Of a stretch of DNA of 64,000 nucleotides, positions 67 to 22,384 are shown one piece after another. The notes beneath the pieces are model-generated. The model saw only the letters and a program-made list of their open reading frames with translations. It had not been told where the DNA came from and ran no database searches. Made by a program: the position numbers and the translations under genes. Each line of letters opens with the position of its first letter. The first letter of the stretch is position 1. This stretch comes from a virus, in IMG/VR virus record IMGVR_UViG_3300042731_007021, positions 1 through 64,000 of that record. One strand, given 5' to 3'.

Positions 67-271
67 ACCATAGAAAAATCGCAGTCAATCCTCCACCTAC
101 CATTAGGATTCTTAGCCATCCACTAGTATATTTATAATAAAATTCAGTGTCGTTAACGAATGGCGTTGATGCTATAAAAAAGGCTTTTAATATTCTGTAT
201 AAAGTTTTCACCACTATCTCCAATTACTCATCGCCGGATGGAAATGCAACTGTCAACTCGGACGGCAGGCG

Positions 272-490
272 TTATATTTCGCGCAAAAATGTGCGCCACC
301 ATGCAAGTTGTTGTGATCCAGGACGCGAGTCCCATTCATTCCGTTTGTTCACAAACAACTGGTCTGGCGGAGCGTATGGTTTCATTGCGTTGGCGTGTCG
401 CCACGCTCGTCTGATGCGCAACAACAATTTAATAATAATATCAACGCAAAGCACCAGCAATGCGAGATATAGCAAATCGGTTAAGTTCAC
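272..490 (-). CDS. small membrane-anchored hypothetical protein (cassette-like gene)
   Basis: 72-aa ORF with N-terminal hydrophobic helix and GGGAG RBS; stop TAA lies within GTTATAT core site at 271-277. Confidence 0.7.
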   Translation of the reverse strand: MNLTDLLYLALLVLCVDIIIKLLLRIRRAWRHANAMKPYAPPDQLFVNKRNEWDSRPGSQQLAWWRTFLREI

Positions 491-510
491 TTCCGTCTCC
501 CTTTTGCATC

Positions 511-564
511 AAATAACAATTGCTTCAAGCGACGACTCAGCTCGTCTTACGCTGAGCGTTATGC
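511..564 (+). mobile_element. attC-like recombination site B
   Basis: AAATAAC AATT GCTTCAAG CGACGA-ctcagc-TCGT CTTACGC TGAGC GTTATGC; same layout as classic short attC sites (TAAC AATT..TTCAAG...CTTA..AGC GTTA) with an extrahelical C. Confidence 0.8.
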
Positions 565-795
565 CGGGCCAATTAATTTAGTGTGGCGCGGCGGTTGTTC
601 GGCAGAGTATAAAAAACCGTCCTCGCCAAGCATCAACCCACCAGCCCCTCGCTTTGTAAATTCGCCGTGCCATTTTCCTATTTCCGGGTCACACTCAGAG
701 CAAAGCAACGGCTCGTCGTTACATTTTTTCCACCAGTACCCACACAAGGCTGTATTCTCAACATCCCCGCATTTTTCACATTTGAAAAGTGGCAT
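559..795 (-). CDS. small Cys-rich (CxxC...CxxC) hypothetical protein, cassette gene; start MPLFKCEKC
   Basis: ATG lies within the R'' box of site C and the stop within the R' box of site B; the ORF-track extension to 855 is translated attC sequence. Confidence 0.7.
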   Translation of the reverse strand: MPLFKCEKCGDVENTALCGYWWKKCNDEPLLCSECDPEIGKWHGEFTKRGAGGLMLGEDGFLYSAEQPPRHTKLIGPA

Positions 796-876
796 AACAA
801 CATGCTCCAGTTGCGACGGCCTTGCCCAGGCCTGTCGGGTTAAAATGTGCGCCACGCCTGAGCATGGCCGTTATAT
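792..876 (+). mobile_element. attC-like recombination site C
   Basis: GCATAAC AAC ATGCTCCAG ... CTGAGCAT GGCC GTTATAT; ATGCTC(C)AG pairs with CTGAGCAT leaving one extra C. Confidence 0.8.
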
Positions 877-1071
877 TTCCTTAATGCTGTCCACAGTTAT
901 AGCCCAAGGCCACCCGCGTCTACTGCCTGTTTCACCGAGCACCTTTTTAACCTTCGTTATAGCACCAGCTTTCGTTTCTGCTTTTATAGTCAGTTTTTCA
1001 GCTTCATCCCATCGCGGAAAGTAATATCCGGTGGGGTCTTTCTCTGTTGCTCTGATCGCAAATTCAAACAC
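871..1071 (-). CDS. hypothetical protein, cassette gene
   Basis: 66-aa ORF with GGAGGTG RBS; exactly fills the space between sites C and D. Confidence 0.75.
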   Translation of the reverse strand: MFEFAIRATEKDPTGYYFPRWDEAEKLTIKAETKAGAITKVKKVLGETGSRRGWPWAITVDSIKEI

Positions 1072-1087
1072 TCACCACCTCCCAAAA

Positions 1088-1145
1088 ATATAACAATGAA
1101 ATGCAATAGGTTCGCTGCGCTCCCGACTGATTTTTTCCGTTATAT
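1088..1145 (+). mobile_element. attC-like recombination site D
   Basis: ATATAAC AATG AAATGCA ...TTCGCTGCGCTC... CTGATTT TTTCC GTTATAT. Confidence 0.7.
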
Positions 1146-1382
1146 TTCAAAATCAGATTTTCGAAACCCGGCTTCTCGGAAGCCTGTAAACACACTGATG
1201 CATTGCGGGCAAGTAATTTTTTGCCCAGGAGGTGCTTTGACAGTTCCAAACGTACCGACATGAATGTACGGGTCATTTGCATCCAAACCGCACAGTGTGT
1301 CGTAATCAGTTGGGAAACAATTTATTGCATGCCAAATGACGCCATCTGATTCTCTGACTCCTATAACTCTGCTCATCCCCAC
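1140..1382 (-). CDS. small putative Zn-binding hypothetical protein (H..TLCG..ITCPQC)
   Basis: 80-aa ORF; stop within R' of site D. Confidence 0.7.
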   Translation of the reverse strand: MGMSRVIGVRESDGVIWHAINCFPTDYDTLCGLDANDPYIHVGTFGTVKAPPGQKITCPQCISVFTGFREAGFRKSDFEI

Positions 1383-1576
1383 AACTCCTTAGCTTTTTTA
1401 AGCGCTTTAATAAAGTTGTCGATGTCTTCTATGGTGCATATTGGGCAGTCTTCTCCCTCTACACCGACAATACCGACAGCCTTACCACGACGGACAATTA
1501 AATCACCTGAATCATCAAATCTGATGCCCTCAACCTCTTCGTTTACTTCTTCTCTGATGTCTATGATCATTTTCAT
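1373..1576 (-). CDS. hypothetical protein
   Basis: 67-aa ORF with GGAG RBS, coupled to the next gene. Confidence 0.7.
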   Translation of the reverse strand: MKMIIDIREEVNEEVEGIRFDDSGDLIVRRGKAVGIVGVEGEDCPICTIEDIDNFIKALKKAKELWG

Positions 1577-1598
1577 AATGCTCCGTCAACCTTAATCG

Positions 1599-1802
1599 TT
1601 ATGTGCTTTCCGCTTGAACTTCGGCGCGGGTTTTCACCAACCGGATAACATTCCTGTCCTCATCAAATTCGACCCTATCACCAAAGGCGTATTGATCACT
1701 CAGAAGGTGATTGTTTATTTCGGCCTGGTTTTCTGGCAAGTCTGGATACCGGTAGGCCCAGAATGATTCTCCGGGTATTTTTAAACGTATATTTGGGTCC
1801 AC
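1599..1802 (-). CDS. hypothetical protein, cassette-like gene
   Basis: AGGAG RBS; flanked by GTTATGT (1598) and GCCTAAC (1819). Confidence 0.7.
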   Translation of the reverse strand: MDPNIRLKIPGESFWAYRYPDLPENQAEINNHLLSDQYAFGDRVEFDEDRNVIRLVKTRAEVQAEST

Positions 1803-1818
1803 AGTATTAATCTCCTGC

Positions 1819-1924
1819 GCCTAACACGGCACACATTGACGCATTTTTACCTGGTATGTCATTCTATATCTCGCTAGTTGGCACGTTCCGCTGCGCTCTA
1901 CGCCGCACAGTTTTGATGTTCAGC
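1819..1924 (+). mobile_element. degenerate attC-like site F
   Basis: GCCTAAC ... CCGCTGCGCTC ... GTTCAGC; arms pair poorly. Confidence 0.4.
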
Positions 1925-2162
1925 GTCCACGCTTCGCTTGATATGCGTAGCATCCGAACGGTTCTCCGAGTGCCTCACTCATAGCCTTGCAGGTCGAACA
2001 CGGGCGAGTTGATACCGTGTGCATGTCTACCGATAAGACCTTTATGGCCTCAATAAGGGACGCTGAACCAGCCATTGAAGAGGAATTGCTCTCGTTGGCG
2101 TTTCGTTTAAAAGTGCAAATCGGGTCACATTCTTCACCACATTCAGGGCTACATTTACTCAT
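1920..2162 (-). CDS. Cys-rich hypothetical protein
   Basis: 80-aa ORF with GAGG RBS. Confidence 0.6.
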   Translation of the reverse strand: MSKCSPECGEECDPICTFKRNANESNSSSMAGSASLIEAIKVLSVDMHTVSTRPCSTCKAMSEALGEPFGCYAYQAKRGR

Positions 2163-2195
2163 TCCGCAATCCTCTTAATAGTGAACGTTATAGGG

Positions 2196-2495
2196 CTAAT
2201 CGGCGTATCTGGTAATCGCCCTATGTAATTCTTCCAGCCCAATGTCGGGGTTGTCATCAAGTAGTCGTTTTCGCATTTTCAGCGCATTCCGGTTAATCAA
2301 TCCATGCTCATAAGCGTCAATCGGCATCGCAATTCCGCGCTCTGTTCGTCCACTGCATACTGCCTGATCATAAGCCTCGGTTTCTTCATGGTACTGTTTA
2401 GCCAGTTCATATAATCGGCGGTCTTTTTCGGTAGGAGTGAAGTCTCCATATAACAAGGCGCTAAACTCGGACTCGTCTCTCTTCGCTGCGCTCAT
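2196..2495 (-). CDS. hypothetical protein; likely start MSAAKRDE inside attC site H
   Basis: GGAGAGGAACA-ATG at 2495, in frame with the track ORF. Confidence 0.65.
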   Translation of the reverse strand: MSAAKRDESEFSALLYGDFTPTEKDRRLYELAKQYHEETEAYDQAVCSGRTERGIAMPIDAYEHGLINRNALKMRKRLLDDNPDIGLEELHRAITRYAD

Positions 2496-2526
2496 TGTTC
2501 CTCTCCGGTTATGCCAAGCGTTATAT
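2448..2526 (+). mobile_element. attC-like recombination site H
   Basis: ATATAAC AAGG CGCTAAAC TCGGA...CTTCGCTGCGCTC...TCCG GTTATGC CAAGC GTTATAT. Confidence 0.75.
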
Positions 2527-2533
2527 TTAAAAA

Positions 2534-2815
2534 TCACACCCCTGTTCCTAACACAGCGTCAAAGCCTTCGGTCACGGCAGCTTTTACAAGGTCGTGCCCC
2601 TGCCCGTATTTGAAATAATCAGCCACCTGCTTGGTTAATTCCGTATGCACGATTTCAGTCACTTTCCCTTGCCAGTCATAGGACTCTATCACCTTCTCAA
2701 TCTCGACCTTCAGGACCTCCCCCATCTCGCTATTATGTGCACCAAGATGCGTCAAAATGGTGGACTTCATTTGTTCAACTTCTAGCCGTATGAGCGGCAT
2801 CGCTTCATGATTCAT
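2534..2815 (-). CDS. hypothetical protein
   Basis: 93-aa ORF with AGGAG RBS. Confidence 0.7.
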   Translation of the reverse strand: MNHEAMPLIRLEVEQMKSTILTHLGAHNSEMGEVLKVEIEKVIESYDWQGKVTEIVHTELTKQVADYFKYGQGHDLVKAAVTEGFDAVLGTGV

Positions 2816-2846
2816 TGTATTAATCTCCTGCGCGTTAACTCAAGCG

Positions 2847-3167
2847 CTAGTCAGCCCTCGGTCTCAGTTCGACTTCTTCAAACATCGACGTTCTGGCGAG
2901 TAACATAGCAGCAAGGTTCGCGACGTCCACCCAGTCCTCCGACTCTACGTTTTTAATGAGCCGGGTTTTTAAATCTGAATTCTCACATTGCGGAGTATTC
3001 CACCCGTTATACCCGTTTTCACGCTTCTCTTTTAATCGTTCTCGCATCTTATGTTCCGCAAAATCTACAAGTAGGCTATCTGCAACCTTGGGGTGGACGC
3101 TCGTTACAAAAGCTACCAGCAAAATATCGTCTGCTTTCTTTTTTGCTAACTCCAGCCTTTCAATCAT
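2847..3167 (-). CDS. conserved-type phage helical protein (GYNGW...C...DWVDVANLAAML), possibly MazG-like fold
   Basis: motif recognition only. Confidence 0.5.
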   Translation of the reverse strand: MIERLELAKKKADDILLVAFVTSVHPKVADSLLVDFAEHKMRERLKEKRENGYNGWNTPQCENSDLKTRLIKNVESEDWVDVANLAAMLLARTSMFEEVELRPRAD

Positions 3168-3203
3168 GTTCCTATCTCCTATTAAAATGGCTAATATACC
3201 TAT

Positions 3204-3455
3204 TCAATTGGCACCTTTCGGCCTGCCTGGTTCCAGAACCTCACATCGAATCAGCTTTTCAGCGTCCAGGGTACTTGGGTCGAACGCCACCTTGACCGAA
3301 GAGGTGGCCTTGGCCCCTGCCCTTGCGGCATAACTGTTAATGCCTTGCATGGCTATCCCTACTTCACCAGCTGGCACCGGGTAGTAAACCACAGTGCCAG
3401 CCGGCATGCGCAAAAAGTCGCCGACTGGGGGGTAGAATTGTGAAAATTTTGGCAT
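3204..3455 (-). CDS. hypothetical protein
   Basis: 83-aa ORF with AGGA RBS. Confidence 0.6.
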   Translation of the reverse strand: MPKFSQFYPPVGDFLRMPAGTVVYYPVPAGEVGIAMQGINSYAARAGAKATSSVKVAFDPSTLDAEKLIRCEVLEPGRPKGAN

Positions 3456-3490
3456 TGGATTTCCTGGTTAATTTAGGTTAATTGAAAAAT

Positions 3491-3892
3491 TCACCGCACC
3501 AACTTCACCGTCACCCGGCGAGAACCAAAAGTCGTCTTGAATATCTTCTTCAGATCGATCGGGGATAGGTATTTGCGCAGATCGGTGATACTGAACTTGG
3601 CCAGTTTATAGGCCAGGCCTTTTTCAACATCCTCCAGCATTTGGGCGGCAGTCGTAGTATTTTTTACTACGTTGGATTCAGCCTTCTTTCCGATGTTGAT
3701 CTCACATCCAGGAGCGCTCAGATTCGCCGATTCAAGCCTACCCAGTCCGCCTTTCTCAACATGTTCGACAATCAATTTGACGGCGGCGTTATAATCGGCG
3801 GTGATATGTTCAAGCTCAGTTGAAACTTTGTCTTTGGCGCTTTTCAATTCTGCAATTTCGTTCATTGCTGCGGTGTAACTCTTTACGGACAT
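3491..3892 (-). CDS. hypothetical protein with N-terminal coiled coil
   Basis: 133-aa ORF with GGAG RBS, directly downstream of a sigma70 promoter. Confidence 0.75.
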   Translation of the reverse strand: MSVKSYTAAMNEIAELKSAKDKVSTELEHITADYNAAVKLIVEHVEKGGLGRLESANLSAPGCEINIGKKAESNVVKNTTTAAQMLEDVEKGLAYKLAKFSITDLRKYLSPIDLKKIFKTTFGSRRVTVKLVR

Positions 3893-3925
3893 CTTTTTGT
3901 CTCCGGTTTGTTTATCTGAAATTGC

Positions 3926-3959
3926 AGTATAAAGATTGATGTATTATTTGTCAACAAGT
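3926..3959 (-). promoter_or_regulatory. sigma70-type promoter ACTTG-TTGACA-N17-TATACT
   Basis: near-consensus -35/-10 upstream of 3892. Confidence 0.75.
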
Positions 3960-4501
3960 TTATTCTTTCTGCTTCTTTTCGATACATGGTAGATTTTCTT
4001 CATCACTGCATCAGACATCTTAACGATATACACTTGCCACACGTGCGCCATTATCGGCAGGGAGTCTGCAGTCAGGCTTTTATTGGATCGGCGTGGCAAT
4101 ATTTTGTCAGCCTCGGCCAGGATAGGAAACTTTGCTTCATCAGGCTCAACATCTGGGGAGGCTCTCAGGTATGACTTTAATTGACTGTCGGGTATTGGAG
4201 TCTGGGGGAAGTTCCCTATAGCATCCGAGGCCTCCAATGCCATGACTGGCAACACCCGCACTACGAAATCTGACTTATGACGTATGCCGCGGCGCTTCAG
4301 AGGCTCTTGTAACTTGCTGGGCCGGGATTTACTAAACACCAGAAAAGCCATCACATCGTCACGATGCAGATTATTGTAGTCGTCTACTAAGGCATTCCAG
4401 TCGATGTCGGTGTTGACGTATTCACCAAAATCCTTAACCTTCAAGGCCTCCAGAATGTCTGTATAAAGTGGATGCTGTTTGGTTATGAATTTGAGGTTCA
4501 T
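3944..4501 (-). CDS. hypothetical protein
   Basis: 185-aa ORF overlapping its neighbour by ATGA. Confidence 0.75.
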   Translation of the reverse strand: MNLKFITKQHPLYTDILEALKVKDFGEYVNTDIDWNALVDDYNNLHRDDVMAFLVFSKSRPSKLQEPLKRRGIRHKSDFVVRVLPVMALEASDAIGNFPQTPIPDSQLKSYLRASPDVEPDEAKFPILAEADKILPRRSNKSLTADSLPIMAHVWQVYIVKMSDAVMKKIYHVSKRSRKNKLVDK

Positions 4502-4761
4502 TTAGCCTCCGAGTTGGATTCATTTTTAACCGCCCTCTCGTATTCCGACAACAAGTGTTCAAGTAACGTTTCTCCGCATCTTGGGGAGAAGAAAATCCTA
4601 TGGTCTTGCGGCATTCCACTGACGGTGAGGTCTCTTAATTTTTCAGGGCGATAGCTTTTCATTTCACCAGACTCTGACATTACTTGAAGTGGAAAATTAA
4701 ATCTGCTGTCTACCTCAACATACTCTCCGGCCAATGGCCCGCCAACGCATAAAACTTTCAT
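4498..4761 (-). CDS. hypothetical phage protein (VGGPLAG motif)
   Basis: 87-aa ORF, translationally coupled. Confidence 0.7.
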   Translation of the reverse strand: MKVLCVGGPLAGEYVEVDSRFNFPLQVMSESGEMKSYRPEKLRDLTVSGMPQDHRIFFSPRCGETLLEHLLSEYERAVKNESNSEAK

Positions 4762-5849
4762 CTCAAACTCAACTCCTCTTCAATAAATTCTTCATAAATA
4801 GTCTTGAAGTCTTCGTCCGTCGTAGCATCCGTGACCCTTGGGGACAAGTACAATATCTGCTCAGGAGTGAACCCTTTATACAACAGTTGGTCGGCGCGTT
4901 CAATTGGCATGATGGCCAGATTGTCTATCTCACACTCAAGATGCCACTGCTGCAAGGTTTTCATGACCACTGAGTTTTCAAATATATCGAATACTGGGAG
5001 GATCCACTCCGATATAAGTGATCCCCACTGGCGCAAAGACACCGACCGCATTTCCAACGGGGTGTTGGGCGCAAAGGGCGTACAGTCTTCTTCTGAATCT
5101 TCAGGTATGCTTTCAGACGACTTCTCTATGAACACCTTTTCTGAAAACCTTTGCAACTCCGGGATGGCGGCATCATTATATCCGTGCTTCAATAAATCGT
5201 TGGAGGTTATTTTCACTTTTTCAGACATAAAGGTGCCAGTCTGCTCTATTCTTACTATGCCCTCATCCTTGGGCTCTTCTCCCAGGTTTTTTCCGTTGTA
5301 TTCGGTGACGTTGTGATACCCAAAGTGGATAAATCTCCCCCTGACCGGTAGGTAAAGCAATTGAATTGTATCGGCATTGAACTGGAAGCTAGTCAGCATA
5401 CTAAGGCTTATCCGTTCTGAAACAAAGTCGACGCTATATTTCCTATGACCTATGTTATCAGTAGGAAGTGATTCCGCTATGGCGTCCTGACCAATGTCCA
5501 GATAATTGTGGTCATCACTAAAGTCCCTGTAATTAGGATCAACTTTAGACAACTTTGGCACAATAACATAATCCATTTTGTCCAGGTTCTGGTATTTCAT
5601 AGACAAAAACGGTGCCCCTGGACGAGGGGAGACCAGCCCCCTTGGCTGTTTGATATTATCATACAGGTCGGATGTGAATCTGCCATATCCAGGTTCCATA
5701 CCTTTAAGTTGCTGTCTCTCTATCATCTCGTACAAATCATCACCTATAACAACTATAGAAAGGTCTACCCAGTTTGGGTCGCATCGATGCGGATACTGCG
5801 TTATTAAGTTACGCCATTGCTTGTATAGAAGTTCAGAGTGTAGTTTCAT
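4758..5849 (-). CDS. hypothetical protein
   Basis: 363-aa ORF. Confidence 0.8.
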   Translation of the reverse strand: MKLHSELLYKQWRNLITQYPHRCDPNWVDLSIVVIGDDLYEMIERQQLKGMEPGYGRFTSDLYDNIKQPRGLVSPRPGAPFLSMKYQNLDKMDYVIVPKLSKVDPNYRDFSDDHNYLDIGQDAIAESLPTDNIGHRKYSVDFVSERISLSMLTSFQFNADTIQLLYLPVRGRFIHFGYHNVTEYNGKNLGEEPKDEGIVRIEQTGTFMSEKVKITSNDLLKHGYNDAAIPELQRFSEKVFIEKSSESIPEDSEEDCTPFAPNTPLEMRSVSLRQWGSLISEWILPVFDIFENSVVMKTLQQWHLECEIDNLAIMPIERADQLLYKGFTPEQILYLSPRVTDATTDEDFKTIYEEFIEEELSLR

Positions 5850-6558
5850 TTCCAGCTTTTCCCATAAACGGCAAATGCTTCAACACGTCATCAAATTTCA
5901 AAATCTTTTCAGCAGTAGCCGGGAAAAATTTTTCATCAACTTCTACTTTTTCTGTAATTCTGAAATCCCCCACCTTAATCGACACGCTTAATTCATATTT
6001 GTAAGGGGACATAGCCCTTTCTGTTCTGGTGCAGTAACATATTAATTCTGCATCATGAAGCAGGAATTCATATGCCACCCTGTTCTTTTCCCGGAGGTCC
6101 AACATAGCAGACATTATAAGATCCCTGGCGGGGCCGTTAAATAGTGGGCTTGAATACTCCAATGGCAGGCCGTATAACTGCGGTGAATTCCTAAGATGCC
6201 ATCGACAAAATGCATAGGCCGTTATCGGTTTAACGAAAAACGGAAACTTGCATTCAGGCTTCTCCCCTACTTCATTCATAATATAGTCTTGGTACTGAAT
6301 TTCATACAGGTCAGGGGCATCGTCTTCAGGATCCCTTGGCATAGAGCTGCGAAGATAACTCAACATGGATTTAAATTCATTCTTATATCCAGCCCCTTCA
6401 TGGACACGAATGAACGAGCATAAAGAACTCACATCAATCAATTTAAACTTTATGTCCACGTATATGGGGTTCAGCCCGGATGCTTCAAAGAAAGCCTCTG
6501 AGTCGTTTATACGGCTTCTTCTATTCGGATGGTCCCGGAGGTAATCTAGGGGGTTCAA
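5833..6558 (-). CDS. hypothetical protein
   Basis: 241-aa ORF in a tightly packed operon. Confidence 0.75.
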   Translation of the reverse strand: MNPLDYLRDHPNRRSRINDSEAFFEASGLNPIYVDIKFKLIDVSSLCSFIRVHEGAGYKNEFKSMLSYLRSSMPRDPEDDAPDLYEIQYQDYIMNEVGEKPECKFPFFVKPITAYAFCRWHLRNSPQLYGLPLEYSSPLFNGPARDLIMSAMLDLREKNRVAYEFLLHDAELICYCTRTERAMSPYKYELSVSIKVGDFRITEKVEVDEKFFPATAEKILKFDDVLKHLPFMGKAGNETTL

Positions 6559-6848
6559 TTTATCTTACCGCTCTCTGTTCCATGCAAAGCAGCCTGGCTA
6601 TCTCTCAGCCGCTTGCCCTGGATAGCGCCCGCCAACATTTCGATAAGGCCTCCGGTCACCATAGCAACATACCGGTTGCCGTCTTTATCTTTAAATTGGA
6701 TATCGACAGTTGGGTTGCCTTCCGCAGTACCCTTCCCGACGATACCAAATTCAGTAATTTCGGCGGCATTCCAACTCTCCAACTCATTGTAGTTTGGGGC
6801 TTCTTCCGGGCTGTCAAAAATCTTTATGTTTACTGCATTGGTGGACAT
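6555..6848 (-). CDS. hypothetical protein
   Basis: 97-aa ORF with GAGGA RBS. Confidence 0.7.
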   Translation of the reverse strand: MSTNAVNIKIFDSPEEAPNYNELESWNAAEITEFGIVGKGTAEGNPTVDIQFKDKDGNRYVAMVTGGLIEMLAGAIQGKRLRDSQAALHGTESGKIN

Positions 6849-6857
6849 CGTTTTTCC

Positions 6858-7250
6858 TCAAATTAAAATTAACTGGCGTGGCACGTCTCTATAATCCTCA
6901 AACATGTCACAGTTTTCAAACGGATGGTCTGGCCACCACGTATTGGACTTTTTCAAATTTTCCTCTTCAGTAATAACTTGCAGGTTCCACGGAACATGTA
7001 ATCCGCACACTATGTCGCTGCATATCGGAACAATGTGGTCCTGGTGAACCTGCTCACCGGCGTCTTTTCTACGCTTCCACTCATTACGAATCTCTTTGAA
7101 CCCTGGGTGTTCGGCGCACCAGTCAGGCCAGGCCGCATACAGTTTCTTATAATAGCGGATTGATCTCCTATAATGACTGTTGAGTGAGGAATCATTCTCA
7201 TCTTGTTTAGCCAGCCAGATAGGGTTCTGTTTCGATATTGGAGTCGCCAC
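6858..7250 (-). CDS. HNH-endonuclease-like protein
   Basis: HQDHIVPI...[23 protein letters not shown] motif. Confidence 0.8.
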
Positions 7251-7256
7251 AAGTAT

Positions 7257-7544: not shown

Positions 7545-7637
7545 TTTTCTTTGGCCTTAAAATTAAAAGGATGGCAATCCATTATTCTGTTCCTAGTTCC
7601 AGGCAGGGGAAATAGCCCCCTGCCATCGTCAACATAC

Positions 7638-8033
7638 TTACAAGCTGTTTCTCAGTTTCTTAAGGTCTTCCAACGACTTGCCTTTCAGGTCTTCGTCCTG
7701 TTTGTCCTGAATGATTTCGTCAATGCGGTTTTTAAACGCTTTGGTTTCAGCCGCCTTTTCTGCGCGTTCCTTGAACTCAAGACGCTTGGCTATAATGTAT
7801 TTAACCAAGTCCAATTTGTCTTTCAGTTCCTGGTCACCGTCGCTGGACGGCTCAACGAAGTCCTCTTCTCCGGCTTCCTTCAAGTTGGCACTGATTGTTT
7901 TAGCCACCGAATTAATAGAATACGCCCCCTTGAGCGGCATAGTCCACAAATCTTCGACGGACAGTGAGCCCTTGGAAGAAACGAAGCGAAACTTCTTCTT
8001 CGATGCGATTTCAAATAAATTGCGTTCTGACAT
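7638..8033 (-). CDS. conserved phage protein (NLFEIASKKKFRF..KG.LSVEDLW), partner of the 681-aa protein
   Basis: recognisable phage family; GGAG RBS. Confidence 0.75.
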   Translation of the reverse strand: MSERNLFEIASKKKFRFVSSKGSLSVEDLWTMPLKGAYSINSVAKTISANLKEAGEEDFVEPSSDGDQELKDKLDLVKYIIAKRLEFKERAEKAAETKAFKNRIDEIIQDKQDEDLKGKSLEDLKKLRNSL

Positions 8034-8049
8034 GGATTTTCTCCGTTGG

Positions 8050-10095
8050 TTAAAAGTTAATTTTCAAAGTCCGGTTAAAGCTCCCGCTTACCCGGCAGGT
8101 TACCGAATTGCGTTGGGTAGACGAAAACCCAATACCGCTCAGCTGATCGTCTGACATTTCAACGCGCATCTTGTTGCCAAGAATTTCAAACACCTTTCGA
8201 TGTTCATTGAGTTCAGGCTTCAGAAACTCATTGTAAAACCCTCTCGGCGCTTCCGGATTCCGGCAATTTTTCAACATGAAGAAATAGTGCTGGTTTCCGG
8301 TCTGCTTACCGCCCCAGAAATTGGGAGACAGTAACATCAACGACACCGGCTGGAAACGCTCCGTCTCAATACCCCAGACACTACGGGATGTTGAAGTGGA
8401 CGGCAGCGATTTAACAACCTCCATAGTTCCGTCAGCCTTCACTTCTAGTCCAATAACGTCTATAAATTCACCGTTCCTCACTGCCTTATCATAAGCAAAC
8501 TTCATAAGGTTGCCGTTAAATTCAAATTCCACTTCAAATCCTACATCTTTTGATTCCCGTTTCTGGTAGTTGTGGACCCCGATAGAGTAAATCCCAGCCG
8601 GAGGGCGGTTCTTCCATACAATGTTCTCCACTGCACGGTTACTGTAGTTAGTGAGGGTGTTGGCATTCATGTCCACATCCAGCCGCCCTCCAGAGAATCT
8701 CCCTGACTTGGTTGAATAGTAAATTTTTTCCTCTTTAGAGCCGGATCTATATACCGAATGCAGGTCCAGGTCATCATAGTTGAACCATGACAAAGACGCC
8801 CGCATATAGCCGTGAACGTCACCGCCTGCGGCTTTCACCCGCTCCCTGATACTGTCGGTCACATCGCCGTTATAGGCCCAGGAGAAGCCGTTATCCCATT
8901 GGAATAAGGAAGGTGCACCTGTCTCCGCGGGGGCTACCAGACTCATCAGGTTGCGCTCATGGCGGTTTTCTACCATAACTTCCATGGCAGTAACCTTAGG
9001 CAGTACGTTGGAAATGAAGTCTTCAATGCCAATCTCTTCCACTTTGTCCAGCTTCTGTGGCCGCTTCCCGGCTTCTTGCATCAACTCGTCAAAGCCGTCC
9101 ACTGCGATCGGCACATCCCGATCCACAAACAGCATATCGGTGGCGTCCAGGTCGGTGTAAGTTGCAAACCGGCGCGAGAGGGCCGACATAAGGCCCAAGG
9201 AAGCAACTTCCTGCTTGGCGTTTTCTATCATGCGCGGAGTGACCAAAGCACTGGGCCGTTTATAGTTGGCCGGGGCAGTCACTTTATCATAGCGCTTGAC
9301 AGCTTTCTCAAGGTCCATGCCTTCCGACAAATCTACCAACAAGGTGCCGATTGAAGAGTTGCGGATGTGGGAAACCGAAGAGTCTTCAATGCAATACTTC
9401 CATGCAAAGTTTTCCTGCTTCTTTTCATTGCTGTGAGAAGCGTTCCACAACAAATAGTAAGCGCTTTGCAGGCCCTTGAATGCAGCCAATTGTCTCTTGT
9501 ATTGATCTCCCCGATAAAGAGAATTTTGGCCAATCAAATCCAGCACGATATCAATGGCGTCACTTTCAATTTCCTCCAAAGCCCGTTTGAACACATTTTT
9601 TGCATTGAACGCTTTGGATTGCAGTGTCCCGATACGAGTGGCAGTCTTCACGAATCGTTCCGGAATATCCAGATGAAAGTGGCTCCACCGGATGTCCGAG
9701 TTGTGACTGTCAAAGTTATGATCGACGCCGACAGCTTTGAACTCACTCAATAAAATATTAGCGATAGGGAGCGCCTTGACATAGGCCGACAGACTGTCAG
9801 CAACGGCTTGATACGCAGGGTTGTTGATTCGAATATCCCAGATTGATACCAGGTTATAATCCTCGTCCAATGAAACGATGCCACCCGCCTGACGCACGAA
9901 TGCTTTACAGCAACTACAGTCGTGTTCCGTTCTCTCCCGAAAGATTTGGTTGGAGCCCTCAGGAAAGGCTCCCAGATACTTTTCATACCAGACTGTATCC
10001 CGGTCGGTATCGACAATAAACAACTGGTTTTCGTCCGATGCCATCTTCGAAAATTGCTGTTGCACTGCGGTTTTAAAGACTTCAAAAGTCATCAT
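8050..10095 (-). CDS. large conserved phage protein with N-terminal EHDCSCCK motif and YfaP/DUF2135-like C-terminal domain
   Basis: LSWFNYDDLDLH...GGRLDVDMN...VENIVW...YSIGVHNY. Confidence 0.75.
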   Translation of the reverse strand: MMTFEVFKTAVQQQFSKMASDENQLFIVDTDRDTVWYEKYLGAFPEGSNQIFRERTEHDCSCCKAFVRQAGGIVSLDEDYNLVSIWDIRINNPAYQAVADSLSAYVKALPIANILLSEFKAVGVDHNFDSHNSDIRWSHFHLDIPERFVKTATRIGTLQSKAFNAKNVFKRALEEIESDAIDIVLDLIGQNSLYRGDQYKRQLAAFKGLQSAYYLLWNASHSNEKKQENFAWKYCIEDSSVSHIRNSSIGTLLVDLSEGMDLEKAVKRYDKVTAPANYKRPSALVTPRMIENAKQEVASLGLMSALSRRFATYTDLDATDMLFVDRDVPIAVDGFDELMQEAGKRPQKLDKVEEIGIEDFISNVLPKVTAMEVMVENRHERNLMSLVAPAETGAPSLFQWDNGFSWAYNGDVTDSIRERVKAAGGDVHGYMRASLSWFNYDDLDLHSVYRSGSKEEKIYYSTKSGRFSGGRLDVDMNANTLTNYSNRAVENIVWKNRPPAGIYSIGVHNYQKRESKDVGFEVEFEFNGNLMKFAYDKAVRNGEFIDVIGLEVKADGTMEVVKSLPSTSTSRSVWGIETERFQPVSLMLLSPNFWGGKQTGNQHYFFMLKNCRNPEAPRGFYNEFLKPELNEHRKVFEILGNKMRVEMSDDQLSGIGFSSTQRNSVTCRVSGSFNRTLKINF

Positions 10096-10108
10096 ATTCT
10101 CCGGTCTT

Positions 10109-10262
10109 TCCAGTCTCTTGGACTGAAGGTTAAAAATTAGGTTTGGTATCCAGCCTCCACGCTGGCCGTCGCTTCAACGGTCTGGATACCCGAAGCCAGT
10201 TAAACTTGGCGCTGTTGCTAATCGTCTACCGATTGGCCGCTTCTAACGGCTGGATGTTACAT
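10109..10262 (-). ncRNA. candidate structured RNA / leader with several hairpins
   Basis: GGTATCCAG/CTGGATACC, GCTAATCG/CGATTGGC, ATCCAGCC/GGCTGGAT and smaller stems in an intergenic gap. Confidence 0.45.
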
Positions 10263-10300
10263 GGCTACCTCTTTTTATTGTGTGGTTATGCGGCTAGCGG

Positions 10301-10528
10301 TTATCCATTCATAGGAACAATATAGCTGAGGTTTCGACCCACCTTCTGTCGGACCCCAGGTTGTGCCACTGCCTTCTTTTCACCATGGATGGTCTGAGTG
10401 ACTATGTGGCCCATTGGAGAATACAAGGTTTTTCCTCTCAACATCACCTTCTCCGCGAATGCCTCACGAAGCAGATTGGCCCTGTACTTCTTGAATGATT
10501 CGTTGTGTTTTCTTGCTCTTGCTGCCAT
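10301..10528 (-). CDS. small basic hypothetical protein
   Basis: 75-aa ORF with AGGGG RBS right after the tRNA. Confidence 0.65.
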   Translation of the reverse strand: MAARARKHNESFKKYRANLLREAFAEKVMLRGKTLYSPMGHIVTQTIHGEKKAVAQPGVRQKVGRNLSYIVPMNG

Positions 10529-10549
10529 GGTTATACCCCTTGTTAAAGT

Positions 10550-10624
10550 TGGTAGCGAGAAAGGGAATCGAACCCCCGTCTTCCGGGCTATGGACCCGGT
10601 GCTCTACCACTAAGCTATCTCGCA
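10550..10624 (-). tRNA. tRNA-Met(CAT), initiator (fMet) type, CCA encoded
   Basis: TGCGAGA TA GCTT AGTGGTA GAGC A CCGGG TCCATAG CCCGG AAGAC GGGGG TTCGATT CCCTT TCTCGCT A CCA; 1:72 mismatch and three G-C pairs at the base of the anticodon stem. Confidence 0.93.
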
Positions 10625-10630
10625 TTAAAA

Positions 10631-10936
10631 TCAATCGTTAAGTTCCGGATGAGAGTCCTTCCACTCTTTAACCCCTCTACTCCAACGTTCAAGATGTTCG
10701 CTGAAGGTCTTTAAGGCTTCACTATCCGCCAAGGTATCCCCTGTAAAGATGGCGGCATCTACGGTGTCGCAGGCTTCGTCAAGCCAATCTGGCAATGACA
10801 TACTTACTTTACTCCTTTCAAAATTAATATAAGCTAAAACCCGCAGTTCAGCCTCTGCATAATCAATTTCTGGGAAGCTACACCTTCCCTCTACGACCAC
10901 TGTGGATTTTATTTTGTTTTCAGCTTCGTTTGCCAC
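10631..10936 (-). CDS. hypothetical protein with a PolA motif-A-like peptide (IDYAEAELRVLA)
   Basis: 101-aa ORF with AAGGA RBS. Confidence 0.6.
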   Translation of the reverse strand: MANEAENKIKSTVVVEGRCSFPEIDYAEAELRVLAYINFERSKVSMSLPDWLDEACDTVDAAIFTGDTLADSEALKTFSEHLERWSRGVKEWKDSHPELND

Positions 10937-10964
10937 TATTATTTCCTTTCAAATCTTAAAATGG

Positions 10965-10999
10965 ATATTACTGCATCAACTACCTTAATGTCAATAAGT
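10965..10999 (-). promoter_or_regulatory. sigma70-type promoter ACTTA-TTGACA-N18-TAATAT
   Basis: shares the phage promoter signature; upstream of the tRNA operon. Confidence 0.65.
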
Positions 11000-11014
11000 T
11001 ATTTTTAGGGGCGC

Positions 11015-11452
11015 TCAATTTCCCTTGTCACCTTCAAGCAAGCGTTGCCGTATGTCCATTAGCAACTTTCCTAACATATTTTTACCTTTCCCGTCACACA
11101 CGCCCCAGAAAGTATCCCCCCAGGTATTGCCTTCGATGAGTTCAACATCCCCTGTTCTCTTTAATTTTCTGGCTAAATAACTACCACAAGCAAATTTCTG
11201 CTCTAATAATTCTTGCATTACTGAAACTTTAATCTCGTCCCAATCTTCCCGGATACCTATTTCCCTGGAAAGTCTCTTTGATTGCCCAGGGGTGCAGCAT
11301 TGGAACTGAAACCTCAAGTTAGTGGGGACTTTAGCAGCCTGATAAGCGTTTTCCAGTGTGGGAAACAATTGGTCATGATAAACTATTTTTACTTTATAAA
11401 AGTTTGACAAAAACCTATTTTCTCCGCTGAATCTATCGATAGCTTTGGGCAT
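11015..11452 (-). CDS. NADAR (YbiA/DUF1768) family protein; likely start MPKAIDRF
   Basis: FLSNFY, ENAYQAAK, LEQKF, LIEGNTWGDTFWGV...GKNMLGKLLMDIR. Confidence 0.92.
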   Translation of the reverse strand: MPKAIDRFSGENRFLSNFYKVKIVYHDQLFPTLENAYQAAKVPTNLRFQFQCCTPGQSKRLSREIGIREDWDEIKVSVMQELLEQKFACGSYLARKLKRTGDVELIEGNTWGDTFWGVCDGKGKNMLGKLLMDIRQRLLEGDKGN

Positions 11453-11485
11453 CCAAATTTCTCCTATACACATATAATATTCAAC

Positions 11486-11836
11486 TTAAAACGGACACTC
11501 GTCTTCACCCCGCCTTGATTCCACCACCCCAATCTCATGGTGGAACTCAAACTCTTCCACCCTATCAGGGTCTGCGTGAATGCACGTATGATCAGCGTCC
11601 TCTATGGCCCCTTTATTGTGCGGCCAATCATTGCCCCGGCAAAAACACCCACGTCTACTGGACCGCTCTTTTTCCTTTTTGTTAACGCTTTTCAACGTGT
11701 CCCGACCACAGCCTGGGCATAGTGGCCTCTTGGCATAGTGGTCTATCGGCTGATTAAGGGCCAGCCTGGCCCCACAATTTCTTCTATCTGTGCAGCGGTA
11801 GTTAAGGGACATAAGCGCTGTACCCAGGTAATGCAA
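11486..11836 (-). CDS. Cys/His-rich putative Zn-binding protein
   Basis: C..C, CPGC, CFC...WPH motifs; start uncertain. Confidence 0.65.
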   Translation of the reverse strand: MHYLGTALMSLNYRCTDRRNCGARLALNQPIDHYAKRPLCPGCGRDTLKSVNKKEKERSSRRGCFCRGNDWPHNKGAIEDADHTCIHADPDRVEEFEFHHEIGVVESRRGEDECPF

Positions 11837-11885
11837 TGCTATGGATGTGTTTTTGCATATGAGCCGACTGGCGCATTAATGCCTG

Positions 11886-12221
11886 TTATCTAGCATTAAA
11901 GTCCGGTTTTTCCGGCCACACAAAAGGCATAATCCAATAATAATCTTGATCCGGCTCACCATCCATCCAAAACTCTATCACAGTGCCTTCCTCGCTGAAT
12001 AAAATATCGCCATCAAAATGTAAAATTTCAACTTCACTGGCTTTGGGGCTAGATATGTAATACATGCCGCCTTTAGTTAGGCTGTAATTTTTTGTCAACC
12101 TTGCCCATCCGCCATGCTGCGATAACAAGTCACTGTTGCAGGAACTCACTACGCTATCCATTAACCGCTCTATCTCGCCTTCGGCTATAGTTTCGTGGTC
12201 TTCCATTTTTACTTTAATCAT
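11886..12221 (-). CDS. hypothetical protein; stop within a GTTATCT core site
   Basis: 111-aa ORF with GAGGA RBS. Confidence 0.7.
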   Translation of the reverse strand: MIKVKMEDHETIAEGEIERLMDSVVSSCNSDLLSQHGGWARLTKNYSLTKGGMYYISSPKASEVEILHFDGDILFSEEGTVIEFWMDGEPDQDYYWIMPFVWPEKPDFNAR

Positions 12222-12388
12222 TCGCTAGTCCTCAAAGTTCAATCGTTGTATTGCTTAGCTGCTGCTGCTGGCAATAACGAGCCATCCATCTGAGGTCTTG
12301 CGACTCAGACGCTAGTAGTGGCCAGGTTGGCGTTCAAACCAAAACCCGAGGAATTTAATGCTTTGTTCTGCACCCATCAGTGCCTCCG

Positions 12389-12688
12389 TTATGCCGCAAG
12401 CCCGCGAGCGCGAAGCTCGAACCATATCGAGTGCATCGCCTGTACGGCTTCTGCGGATAGCTTGATCCTGGTCTCATGTCCGCTGTTCACAAAAATAAAG
12501 GCAAACGAATCGTCATCGGCGGGGAAAACCGAAATGCTGCGGCCTCCAGATAGTTCGCATTTAATGCCTTTGATTGGCTCATCAGGCATAGCAAGCGCAT
12601 CAACAGAGGAAGCGCTGTCGCTTTGCAATCCACAAGTACATTCAGTTTGAGTACATTGGGTTAAATCTCTTTGTTCACATTCTTTCAT
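12389..12688 (-). CDS. hypothetical protein; N-terminus overlaps a degenerate attC-like site
   Basis: stop within GTTATGC (12388); GGCATAGC AAGC GCATCAACAG at about 12585 is read as ...VDALAMP. Confidence 0.6.
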   Translation of the reverse strand: MKECEQRDLTQCTQTECTCGLQSDSASSVDALAMPDEPIKGIKCELSGGRSISVFPADDDSFAFIFVNSGHETRIKLSAEAVQAMHSIWFELRARGLAA

Positions 12689-12726
12689 TCCGCGCTCCTG
12701 TTGGACAACCTTTTAATATGACTGTT

Positions 12727-12756
12727 AGTCGCACACAGCCGAAACCGTGTGCGACT
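12727..12756 (-). terminator. hairpin downstream of the Gp49-family gene
   Basis: AGTCGCACAC / GTGTGCGACT 10-bp inverted repeat; no clear U-tract. Confidence 0.45.
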
Positions 12757-12761
12757 GTTGG

Positions 12762-13064
12762 TTACGCTGCTTCGTGCAGTTTCTGCTTCAGAGCGTAGCC
12801 CTCCAAGGCCCAGATTTTTTCTCTGGCATTGTTCCTGGCAATCTTGCGCCCCAGCTCGGCGTTGAAGTTCTCAGGGCTTGCGCAGGCGCTTTCTCCAGTC
12901 ACAGTGAAACCGTTCGCCAAGGTCAGGCAGCACACGGTAAGCTGACTGCCGGGGAATACGTGATAGTCCTCGCCAGCAATCACCTCATCCAGTCGCTCAG
13001 GAGTAACACGCGGCGCAGTCAGTCCTTTGTCCTGAATCTCTTTTTCAATTTCTTGCTCACTCAT
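12762..13064 (-). CDS. Gp49 family protein (N4 gp49 / Sf6 gp66), cassette gene
   Basis: APRVT...LTVCCLTLANGFTVTGESACASPENFNAELGRKIA...KIWALEGY. Confidence 0.9.
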   Translation of the reverse strand: MSEQEIEKEIQDKGLTAPRVTPERLDEVIAGEDYHVFPGSQLTVCCLTLANGFTVTGESACASPENFNAELGRKIARNNAREKIWALEGYALKQKLHEAA

Positions 13065-13080
13065 TTTTCAAAGTCTCAGC

Positions 13081-13167
13081 GGCTAACAGTAAATTCCACG
13101 GGACGTGGGATAGTCCGCGCTTCGCATCTGGCCGCATTCAGCGCGCCCGTGAATAAAAGTGTTAGTT
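13081..13167 (+). mobile_element. attC-like recombination site J
   Basis: GGCTAAC AGTA AATTC(C)ACGGG ... CCCGTGAAT AAAAGT GTTAGTT; extrahelical C. Confidence 0.82.
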
Positions 13168-13410
13168 TTCTTCAATCCATGCGGCACAAGTTTCTTCACC
13201 TTGCGGTACTTCTGTATACCCTAAATCCGCATGGCAGTAAGTTCCTTCACGCTGTATCAATTCTCTGAACTTCTTGTCACTCACCCCAAGCACAATAATT
13301 GTACATCTCGGGTCAGTAATACCAAGACCAATTACAGCATGAGCAATCTGTGCGGCCACTTTGCCCTCAGTCATTTTTAAGTTTTTTCTGTAAATCGCTT
13401 TTATTCTCAT
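13162..13410 (-). CDS. peptidyl-tRNA hydrolase PTH2-type protein (short), cassette gene
   Basis: LKMTEGKVAAQIAHA, IIVL, DLGYTEVPQGEETC motifs. Confidence 0.85.
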   Translation of the reverse strand: MRIKAIYRKNLKMTEGKVAAQIAHAVIGLGITDPRCTIIVLGVSDKKFRELIQREGTYCHADLGYTEVPQGEETCAAWIEEN

Positions 13411-13424
13411 AAATCACCATCAAA

Positions 13425-13484
13425 AATTAACAACGCCATTAAATCCGACTAGCTATCGCTCTCAGTTTATGGCGAGCGTTATAG
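13425..13484 (+). mobile_element. attC-like recombination site K
   Basis: AATTAAC AAC GCCAT(T)AAA ... TTTATGGC GAGC GTTATAG. Confidence 0.8.
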
Positions 13485-13688
13485 CGTATTCTGCTCTTTC
13501 AACTTTTGCAGATCAGCCATCAATTCCTCATTGTTCGCAATGCACTCAGCAGTGAAGCGGTAACGTGTCCAGTGCATAGGTGCATCGTCATCAATAATCT
13601 GGCACAGCACCCAGGCGATGCGGTCTGTCGTGTTCGCGGTTTCTTTGTTAAAAGGTTCAAACATTTCGATATCCTCAAAGTGCGCCAT
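13479..13688 (-). CDS. hypothetical protein, cassette gene; start MAHFEDIE
   Basis: ATG within R'' of site L, stop within R' of site K. Confidence 0.7.
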   Translation of the reverse strand: MAHFEDIEMFEPFNKETANTTDRIAWVLCQIIDDDAPMHWTRYRFTAECIANNEELMADLQKLKEQNTL

Positions 13689-13747
13689 AATACGGCGCTG
13701 TGGAGGGGAGCGCAAAAGACGCGCTCCCCTAAGCTAAAACGTTAATG
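13685..13747 (+). mobile_element. attC-like recombination site L (R'' reads TAAT instead of TAAC)
   Basis: CCATAAT ACGG CGCT GTGG AGGGGAGCGC aaaagac GCGCTCCCCT AAGC TAAAAC GTTAATG. Confidence 0.65.
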
Positions 13748-14083
13748 CCACCAGAGAAAAATCTCGGTATCTGGTGGCAACGCCTTCATGTATTCCATAA
13801 CGGCCCTGTTTTTCGGGCTGAGTTTATACTTAGCCATTGCATCAGCAATAAGTTTTGCGCGTGTCGAAGTAAGCCGGTCGCCATAATTATCTTTGTCGGT
13901 ATCTTCCAGCCCTTCATCGTCGTACCAATGCAGCTTACGGCCCTGTCTAAATTCAACGACACCGCAGTTTCTTATTGAATCCTGCATGTCATAGTCACGG
14001 TCTGTCAGCAGTCTCTCGTAAGCGAGTGGCAGGTTATCGTCTTTTACGAACGCATTAACCACTAAAGTTAAACTTACTCCCAT
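13742..14083 (-). CDS. hypothetical phage protein (D.YGD.LT...NRAVMEYMKALP...LWWH), cassette gene
   Basis: 113-aa ORF with GGAGGTG RBS; stop within R' of site L. Confidence 0.75.
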   Translation of the reverse strand: MGVSLTLVVNAFVKDDNLPLAYERLLTDRDYDMQDSIRNCGVVEFRQGRKLHWYDDEGLEDTDKDNYGDRLTSTRAKLIADAMAKYKLSPKNRAVMEYMKALPPDTEIFLWWH

Positions 14084-14164
14084 GTGTCACCTCCAAAGGT
14101 CACTATCAATTAATTCAAGAGGACGGCAAAACCGCCCTATGCAAAACACAGGTTGTTATACAAC

Positions 14165-14533
14165 TTATCCAATTTCAGCGAGAATGTCGGAGAAGATGAC
14201 GGCCTCGCTTTTGCTGTCCACGTTAAGAGGCTGGATTCCAGTAGGTTCGAAAGAAAGCCCTTTTCCCTCTCCGATTACCCAAATCATCTTACCTTTCATC
14301 TCAGAGAAATCATTAACGTTCAATGCCAGCAGTAAGCGGCGGATAACCTCGCAACCATACGCAGTTCCTACCCGACTTTGCTTCTCTTCGTCCCATTGAT
14401 CTAATGCAATACCCCCAACACCCTGTGAACCCCCATCTTCATAATCAACATGAATCCAGAAATTAAGAATCCCACGCTCTTGGATCTCCAGGGCAGCTTT
14501 TGAAATTTTAGCTAGTTGTTTCGTCATATTCAT
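14165..14533 (-). CDS. conserved-type phage hypothetical protein
   Basis: 122-aa ORF; GTTATAC core site 4 nt beyond the stop. Confidence 0.75.
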   Translation of the reverse strand: MNMTKQLAKISKAALEIQERGILNFWIHVDYEDGGSQGVGGIALDQWDEEKQSRVGTAYGCEVIRRLLLALNVNDFSEMKGKMIWVIGEGKGLSFEPTGIQPLNVDSKSEAVIFSDILAEIG

Positions 14534-14590
14534 TCTCCAATAAGTTGCTGTTATGCGCTATCTGTCTCACTATAAAAATATTCATCAAAT

Positions 14591-14646
14591 TAAAAAAGCC
14601 AAACCGGAAGGGCGGAGCAGGGTTGATGAACATACACCCTTCCGGC
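14591..14646 (-). terminator. possible intrinsic terminator
   Basis: CCGGAAGGG/CCCTTCCGG inverted repeat with a long loop, followed by a T6 run on the minus strand. Confidence 0.4.
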
Positions 14647-14679
14647 CTGACAAGAGGCTTGTGTAAAGCCCCGACACAA

Positions 14680-21273: not shown

Positions 21274-21384
21274 TGTTGGATTGCTCCTATTGTGTCGTTA
21301 ATCTTTAAAGCGTCTTTCGCTTTGTCTGTGTTGCTTATATTACATTAACTATAATGATGTAGTCAATATTTATTTTCTTGTTTT

Positions 21385-22380: not shown

Positions 22381-22384
22381 GGCG

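Follow-up and report, generated by a model that had tools for sequence, protein, structure and literature searches.

The window analysed here, a 64,000-nucleotide stretch of DNA from an uncultured wetland tailed phage (positions 1 to 64,000 of IMG/VR record IMGVR_UViG_3300042731_007021), raises the question of whether the elements lying between consecutive small genes in two arrays near its left end are attC sites, the recombination sites of integron cassettes, and of how a tailed phage would have come by them. An earlier note on this DNA, made from the letters alone, had described seven well-formed attC sites and about ten eroded ones, and had read them as a gene pool built by cassette capture through an integron integrase (IntI). 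Five of the seven (A, B, C, H and J) are, judged by their model scores, their canonical layout and the 12 to 14-base words that they share with real attC sites, genuine attC-type sites, and every gene in the arrays runs antisense to the attC top strand. We consider it moderately probable that these are two integrase-less attC clusters (CALINs) in a leftward early or accessory gene block, with cassettes that would have been inserted singly by an integron integrase acting in trans and that would since have partly decayed.

The attC identity of the sites was assessed with a covariance model, R1, built from 18 class 1 integron attC sites located behind named cassette genes at nine plasmid loci (L004-L012; plasmids including R46, Rms149 and pVAS114), with a consensus of seven R-box pairs and eight L-box pairs. 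R1 recovers 23 sites in its source plasmids at an expectation value (E) of at most 0.02, and realignment of these gave a second model, R2; the window sequence is absent from both. In whole-window searches (64 kb, both strands, filters off), R1 and R2 each return the same five matches (E <= 0.23 for R2), all on the plus strand and with ends exactly at the coordinates given in the earlier note, and local searches over shorter targets (3.2 kb for array 2) give lower E. The five sites score 14.4 to 34.3 bits over the two models (Table 1). In phage control DNA searched with filters off, the best match is 10.3 bits in 58,681 bases, and further filter-free controls of 44,044 and 13,092 bases reach 10.5 and 11.4 bits, respectively, which puts the maximum over about 116 kb of such DNA at 11.4 bits. 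As a positive control, Tetrasphaera phage TJE1, which carries a published CALIN, gives one site matched at 26.2 bits. Plasmid DNA (158,854 bases) gave, at E <= 1 and apart from the plus strand of its own cassette arrays, five matches. Three of these are weak and fall on the minus strand of true sites, and a fourth has E 0.45. The fifth, at 12886-13013 (minus strand) of an Aeromonas plasmid (L008), spans 128 bases at 17.4 bits and E 0.078; it lies about 2 kb from qnrVC6, beyond the class 1 array there, and may be a genuine attC of a different type.

Orientation and internal structure point the same way as the scores. Real plasmid sites score 20 to 71 bits on their top strand, and the three listed minus-strand matches to real sites score 14 to 16 bits against 46 to 67 bits on the corresponding top strands. 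The window sites give 14.5 to 33.5 bits on the plus strand and at most 10.3 bits on the minus strand (R2/R1), an excess that identifies the plus strand as the attC top strand. In the alignments the sites show the canonical anatomy, as had been claimed for them: an R'' box ending in AAC, five bases, an L'' arm with one extra base, a variable loop, L', six bases and an R' box starting with GTT, in agreement with a definition of R'' as RYYYAAC and R' as GTTRRRY, with 5-nt and 5-6-nt spacers and L''/L' pairing that leaves the extra base on the '' arm. Non-standard pairs flagged by cmsearch are few (0 of 15 in J and in B, 1 of 15 in H, 2 of 15 in C and 2 of the 13 shown in A). The plus strand of the window shares exact words with real attC sites, namely a 14-mer and a 12-mer with the loop of dfrA27, a 13-mer with the beginning of the oxa2 site, a 12-mer with the 3' half of aadA1 and a 10-mer with arr-3, and 23 shared 10-mers fall in the 6.4 kb of array plus strand versus 67 in the remaining 57.5 kb. 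Copies of the motif CGTTATA number 20 where 5.6 would be expected, a count that none of 100 shuffles reaches, and ten of them lie on the plus strand within 270-13483. The R'' of site B (GCATAAC) is the exact complement of the R' of site A (GTTATGC), and R'' matches the preceding site's R' at 22 of 28 variable positions and its own R' at 17 of 28 (4 of 4 and 2 of 4, respectively, for site B). A closer resemblance to the preceding R' is the footprint expected from insertion of circular cassettes.

Read by hand, sites K and L, at the right end of array 2, show the canonical layout; they are probable attC sites, with three and two non-standard pairs, both in the R box, and with a degenerate R'' in L (AAT instead of AAC). 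Five of the seven well-formed sites of the earlier note are thus upheld, and K and L are borderline. Other routes to attC-like sequence were less informative. A blastn search of site A against plasmids returned chance-level matches only (E 7), and a rule-based attC scanner, with 6 matches on the plus and 7 on the minus strand scattered over the sequence, was dropped as non-discriminating. A weak model match at 22565-22649 (10.1 bits) was judged not to be attC-like after reading, and others at 6097-6142, 8612-8665 and elsewhere were set aside on score alone.

Table 1. Sites, remnants and cargo open reading frames (ORFs) of the two arrays, with window coordinates; array 1 runs from site 0 to half-site I and array 2 holds sites J to L.
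Feature	Coordinates	Strand	Details
Site A	511-564	+	R1 17.4 bits, E 0.032; R2 18.2 bits, E 0.024
Site B	792-876	+	R1 14.4 bits; R2 14.5 bits, E 0.23 whole-window, E 0.012 local
Site C	1088-1145	+	R1 23.4 bits; R2 22.1 bits, E 0.0023; 12-base word from dfrA27 attC loop
Site H, top-scoring	2448-2526	+	R1 34.3 bits, E 6.9e-7; R2 33.5 bits, E 2.3e-6; 14-base dfrA27 attC word
Site J	13081-13167	+	R1 24.1 bits, E 4.4e-4; R2 23.1 bits, E 0.0013; minus strand 7.7 to 10.3 bits
Site K (probable)	13425-13484	+	8.4 bits, E 9.8 whole-window; local E 0.59; 10-base arr-3 attC word
Site L, attC-like (probable)	13685-13747	+	8.7 bits, E 7.5 whole-window; local E 0.38; strong inner hairpin
Site 0, collapsed, left end of array 1	251-277	+	R''-like box, 13 bases, R' GTTATAT; stop of ORF 272-490 in R'
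Remnant D	1584-1604	+	By eye: R''-like GTCAAC, 7 bases, R' GTTATGT carrying stop of ORF 1599-1802
Remnant F	1819-1924	+	R'' GCCTAAC, loop word CGCTGCGCTC, mutated R' GTTCAGC = TGA stop of ORF 1920-2162
Remnant G	2181-2193	+	GTGAAC abutting R' GTTATAG; left boundary of cassette ending at site H
Half-site I	2835-2853	+	L', spacer, mutated R' (GCTAG) = TAG stop of ORF 2847-3167
Cargo ORF, site 0 to A	272-490	-	No Pfam or PHROG family match
Cargo ORF, A to B	559-795	-	phrog_11861; ATG within R'' of B; stop TAA complements TTA of A's R'
Cargo ORF, B to C	871-1071	-	Stop in B's R'; no family match
Cargo ORF of cassette ending at site H	2196-2495	-	99 aa; phrog_27964
Cargo ORF before J	12762-13064	-	N4 Gp49 / Sf6 gene 66 family, PF13876 E 1.2e-32, phrog_322; stop in GTTACGC
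Cargo ORF, J to K	13162-13410	-	phrog_31188; weak PTH2 match, residues 6-28; stop in J's R'
Cargo ORF, K to L	13479-13715	-	No family match

The arrangement of genes around these sites is where the arrays depart from a bacterial integron. All sites share one orientation and are placed between consecutive small genes, as the earlier note had observed; these genes are minus-strand ORFs, and a site may overlap their ends. Every array ORF is antisense to the attC top strand, and the canonical cassette layout, with the ORF on the top strand and attC 3' of it, is absent; read along the mRNA, a cassette (263 to 400 bases long) has its attC first and one small ORF after it, which mirrors the bacterial order of ORF and then attC. 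The sites supply signals at both ends of the genes. Ten of the 16 array ORFs have a stop TAA that complements the TTA of a GTTA core, and in effect these ten end at the crossover point between G and TTA; start signals are placed within or just after the site upstream of each gene. Site H holds, on its opposite strand, the ribosome-binding site (RBS), the ATG and the first 15 codons of ORF 2196-2495. The 36 metagenomic homologues of this ORF (51 to 93% identity) mostly have a length of 99 aa, in agreement with a start at 2495; its AlphaFold model has a mean pLDDT of 87, with low confidence for residues 1-20, and a fold comparison with the PDB gave no match (best E 2.4). For ORF 559-795, homologues detected by tblastn in 11 Vibrio phage records start to align only at residue 20 or 21 of the long ORF, where the ATG inside the R'' of B lies. 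A separate observation concerns a 17-base segment repeated at 1804-1820 and 2817-2833, which on the minus strand gives an RBS (GGAG) and spacer just after an R''-type box, precedes the starts of ORFs 1599-1802 and 2534-2815, and may be a shared cassette leader.

The cargo genes do not resemble cassettes borrowed from bacteria, since PHROG families account for 7 of the 20 ORFs scanned in the arrays and next to them. The earlier note had also suspected counter-defence genes among the cargo, a suggestion that finds no support here, no array gene having a known function.

The surroundings of the arrays are those of a phage genome. On the same contig lie genes for a large terminase (32652-34385), a major head protein (37904-39106), a tape measure (43964-47416) and a J-like tail fibre (48822-52583), and the window further encodes a tail tube protein, an S49 prohead protease, a ribonucleotide reductase small chain and an Nmad5 protein. 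The minus strand carries all plausible genes from 272 to about 26.5 kb, and the two arrays are separated by 9 kb with phage genes between them. The nearest known phages by terminase are Vibrio phages of about 84 kb (best identity 37%). Megablast of 271-8000 against phages returned no match, searches with the terminase and major head protein against viral contigs found none, and a 681-aa window protein has only relatives of 38 to 49% identity among viral and metagenome contigs. The stretch is present in the source run and in one independent DNA run (0.96 of sampled words, with positions 1-75 skipped as repeat). A single source-run contig spans 76-15600, and pieces from the independent run, including 76-1729, 1748-3524 and 13118-14978, likewise join arrays to flanks; as contigs of two DNA runs bridge the arrays and the flanking phage genes, a chimeric assembly, an artefact that the earlier note had considered, is unlikely. 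The window itself starts with a run of 64 A, and in both DNA runs the contigs start some 37 letters ahead of position 76; the homopolymer seems real in two samples and is probably an assembly break point or genome end. Site identity, polarity, position relative to the ORFs, phage context and the lack of an IntI-like gene in the window are direct observations.

A CALIN, as IntegronFinder defines it (PMC4889954), comprises at least two attC sites with E < 1 inside 4 kb and lacks a nearby integrase. In array 1, four sites at E <= 0.23 fall within 2 kb; array 2 combines one strong site with two at local E 0.38 and 0.59 within 0.7 kb; and no integrase accompanies either array within the window, in keeping with the earlier note. 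The 39 window ORFs scanned with Pfam include no member of the tyrosine-recombinase family. A complete integron has intI, attI and Pc by its array, and no intI lies in the window; the left-most site, at 251-277, is a collapsed attC-like remnant rather than a recognisable attI, and the contig ends left of position 65.

The folding of the sites bears on the present state of the arrays. A reference set of 19 sites (18 plasmid attC and the TJE1 site) gave fold z-scores of -2.8 to -10.1, with 12 of the 19 having a probability of core R pairs above 0.7. The window sites span z-scores of 0.9 to -4.6, weaker than the reference sites for several of them, and their probabilities of bottom-strand core R pairing are 0.93 for C, 0.91 for J, 0.86 for K, 0.29 for H, 0.07 for A and 0.00 for both B and L. 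J and K fold as canonical bottom-strand hairpins, the minimum-energy fold of K being itself canonical (z -3.7). Site C pairs its R boxes only and has almost no inner stem, and site L reaches plain-fold z-scores of -4.3 and -5.6 with its R boxes unpaired. Minimum-energy folds of the seven sites on both strands are mostly unremarkable, with no shuffle as good in 3 of the 14. The highest model scores, those of H and C, reflect conserved sequence and not good substrate quality. Beside these sites stand the remnants of Table 1. Site 0 shares a 13-base exact word (252-264) with the oxa2 attC of plasmid R46, remnant F a 10-base word at 1889 with the dfrA27 and estX attC loops, and half-site I the 12-base word TTAACTCAAGCG with the aadA1 attC. 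Remnants D and F have no model match, and the only local R2 matches among the remnants are at 251-277 and 2062-2193, each at 4.5 bits and E 4.8. Poor folds and collapsed remnants together suggest that the arrays are in partial decay. At 12708-12757, just before an R'-like GTTACGC (12761), sits a perfect 10-bp hairpin that lacks an AAC box on the plus strand and is not matched by the attC model.

Together, these observations favour the reading of two CALINs filled cassette by cassette. The integrase would have been supplied in trans by the host or by the roughly 17 kb of genome outside the window, and the cassettes would have entered either by attC x attC recombination or, through their attC, at a genomic GTT, with partial decay of the arrays thereafter. 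We infer insertion by IntI in trans because phage attC sites serve as IntI1 substrates, five of six having been recombined by that enzyme (Qi et al. 2023, PMC9892861, section 3.4), and because IntI inserts cassettes at genomic attG sites away from any integron, leaving isolated cassettes, or SALINs (Loot et al., 10.1101/2022.09.11.507474). The source of the enzyme and any activity in the present day we likewise infer.

A number of results weigh against this reading. Ordinary bacterial cassette capture predicts sense genes and not the reversed layout. A tblastn search with IntI1 found no IntI-like gene within the 64-kb window (best E 1.5). No recombination joints or cassette-sized indels appear in the contigs of four runs, although contigs drop rare variants and uncovered parts and low-depth RNA-library contigs are uninformative in this comparison; the independent DNA run carries identical arrays. 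There is no sign of mobility, and the earlier note's picture of a gene pool built by IntI capture goes beyond these data. Among the sites, H (z 0.9) and C (z 0.1) fold no better than shuffles although high-scoring, A, B and L, and H as well, prefer non-canonical folds, and K and L score no higher than noise when the whole window is searched. The approximately ten eroded sites of the earlier note have no model support, and only the five remnants of Table 1 are visible. The resemblance of R'' to the preceding R' is a weak trend, with one site opposite and two ties, and the motif ATAACAA is not enriched (8 copies against 10.8 expected). Homologues of two cargo genes occur in Vibrio and Burkholderia phages without attC flanks, and around cargo homologues in three other phages no attC rises above noise. 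Finally, R1 and R2 are a surrogate for IntegronFinder's own model and, with 18 to 23 class 1 sites only, give rough E-values; Polaribacter phage P12002L, another phage with a published CALIN, had no model match in a filtered search, which leaves one match only across it and TJE1. This result indicates that the model is conservative and that filtered-search blanks are weak, including the one from the two Vibrio phage genomes nearest by terminase (no match at E <= 1).

A rival reading is that one or more pieces of a bacterial integron array were acquired once, by illegitimate or homologous recombination, and have since been inert and decaying, with no cassette-wise recombination in the phage. 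The want of an integrase in the window, the identical arrays in two samples and the several collapsed or poorly folding sites all agree with such an event, and Qi et al. (2023, PMC9892861) discuss illegitimate and homologous pick-up as routes to phage CALINs. We nevertheless think it unlikely, as it does not readily account for two arrays 9 kb apart with phage genes between them, for the PHROG families among the ORFs in and beside the arrays, or for ORFs that are co-oriented with the phage operon, antisense to attC, and provided with translation signals inside the sites. A purely regulatory origin, in which the elements are hairpins or promoter-terminator modules between early genes, or else chance inverted repeats, already fits the data poorly and is very improbable. 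PeSL elements of T4-type phages are comparable regulatory modules between early genes, and the window sites do sit between small early genes, with some overlapping ribosome-binding sites and several folding weakly; RNA-library contigs also cross sites H and L, though DNA can be present in such libraries. Model scores far above those of the controls, words of 12 to 14 bases in common with real attC sites, and canonical 5/6-base spacers with the extra base all speak for recombination sites instead. Promoter-like sites number 24 against 22.9 expected and terminator-like sites 21 against 16.5, which is background level, and the only overlap of either with a model-supported site is a 5-pair terminator-like hairpin inside site J; this, too, argues against a purely regulatory reading.

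The reversed layout at all window sites could instead reflect a system peculiar to phages, in which the making and moving of reversed attC-plus-ORF units would fall to some recombinase that is not canonical IntI, or to a variant of IntI able to read the mirrored layout, encoded by phages or their hosts. A parallel comes from the cargo protein of site H (ORF 2196-2495), an alignment of which found no locus among genome contigs and one among viral contigs. This sole locus (46% identity) lies in G002, a viral genome of 36.7 kb rated 100% complete, in which no integron-integrase match was found, and the homologue there is flanked by two 97.6%-identical 86-base elements antisense to the gene (L023 4725-4810 and 5246-5331, corresponding to G002 12961-13042 and 13479-13564). 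Read by hand, both elements show the layout of a canonical attC and enclose an RBS and an ATG; they also have a canonical R-L fold, and both open the following ORF with the same leader peptide. They score only 11 bits, however, which is the noise level of the controls, and are a lead, not evidence. The scanned window ORFs include no recombinase candidate, and the canonical sequence and asymmetry of the window sites are such that ordinary IntI should recognise them. We therefore regard a phage-specific system as improbable, and retain the reading of CALINs filled by IntI in trans.

A further and more speculative possibility, doubtful on present data, is a mirror-image phage integron. Its unit would be attC followed by a phage gene, the attC serving as a 5' leader with RBS and start codon; the sense strand would coincide with the recombinogenic bottom strand, which transcription of the early operon would expose, and host integrases induced by infection would shuffle cassettes among co-infecting phages.

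Other features of the leftward block were recorded along the way. A tRNA-Met gene (anticodon CAT) at 10550-10624 on the minus strand, within the early gene block, is recognised by ARAGORN and Rfam (60.6 bits). Adjoining it, at 10306-10410, one RNA-library contig shows 10 listed differences in about 100 bases where another run is exact, and the differences are those of a second strain or variable spot. Between the arrays, and with no model-supported attC flank, lies a minus-strand gene for a NADAR-domain protein (11015-11473; PF08719, E 1.8e-21). NADAR enzymes reverse ADP-ribosylation of DNA bases, and this protein may be a counter-defence gene product. The region 21300-22400 is non-coding and increasingly AT-rich rightwards (GC 0.37 in the 22-24 kb bin), contains an approximately 28-base palindromic element twice (about 21384-21411 and 21526-21553), and could be a replication origin or promoter region.

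In summary, the attC observation of the earlier note is largely confirmed, with five matches at 14.5 to 34.3 bits against a control maximum of 11.4 bits and two arrays in a contig bearing terminase, head, tape-measure and tail-fibre genes, and its interpretation as IntI capture is partly supported. Among the known devices by which bacteria capture genes in modules, integron cassettes are the main one, and the origin of cassettes is unsolved. To this the window contributes a phage with arrays that an independent model supports as genuine and that are reversed, stocked with phage-family cargo and equipped with translation signals in the sites. If reversal were a phage rule, it would point to phage-side use of host integrases for early-gene swapping and would offer a tractable system for how attC joins a gene. 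A mirror-image integron, if true, would provide phages with a store of early and counter-defence genes comparable to the banks of defence genes in bacterial chromosomal integrons, and its cassettes, made from phage genes, would bear on the question of cassette origin.

Comparison with known systems places these arrays among, and apart from, what has been described. Clusters of attC sites without an integrase in tailed phages are already published, Qi et al. (2023, PMC9892861) reporting 17 CALINs among 10,705 phage genomes, and the earlier note's suggestion of an undescribed phage system cannot stand in that form; what is unusual is the reversed layout, which the earlier note does not mention, together with cargo from phage protein families. 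Like the window, the published phage CALINs are attC clusters in tailed-phage genomes with no integrase nearby and with single small ORFs between sites, and they are presented in that work as rare, small and laid out as in bacteria. In TJE1, orf3 (1072-1467) is sense to the attC match at 1462-1519 and ends in its R'', the paper's typical layout (PMC9892861), whereas in the window all genes are antisense, attC lies upstream of the ORF, and two arrays hold 5 to 7 sites and remnants. Our literature searches, which covered the full text of articles, found no description of reversed cargo in phage arrays. With bacterial integron arrays the window shares the R''/L''/L'/R' anatomy, the stop codon drawn from the TAAC box and the dfrA27, oxa2, aadA1 and arr-3 words; it differs from them in having no intI, attI or Pc in view, ORFs on the bottom strand, phage-family cargo in place of resistance genes, and several sites that fold far less well than the 19 reference sites. 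The SALIN experiments (Loot et al., 10.1101/2022.09.11.507474) concern E. coli chromosomes and not phages, and do not predict reversed cargo; insertion at attG is, all the same, a demonstrated IntI route into integron-free DNA, and one that could seed phage arrays.

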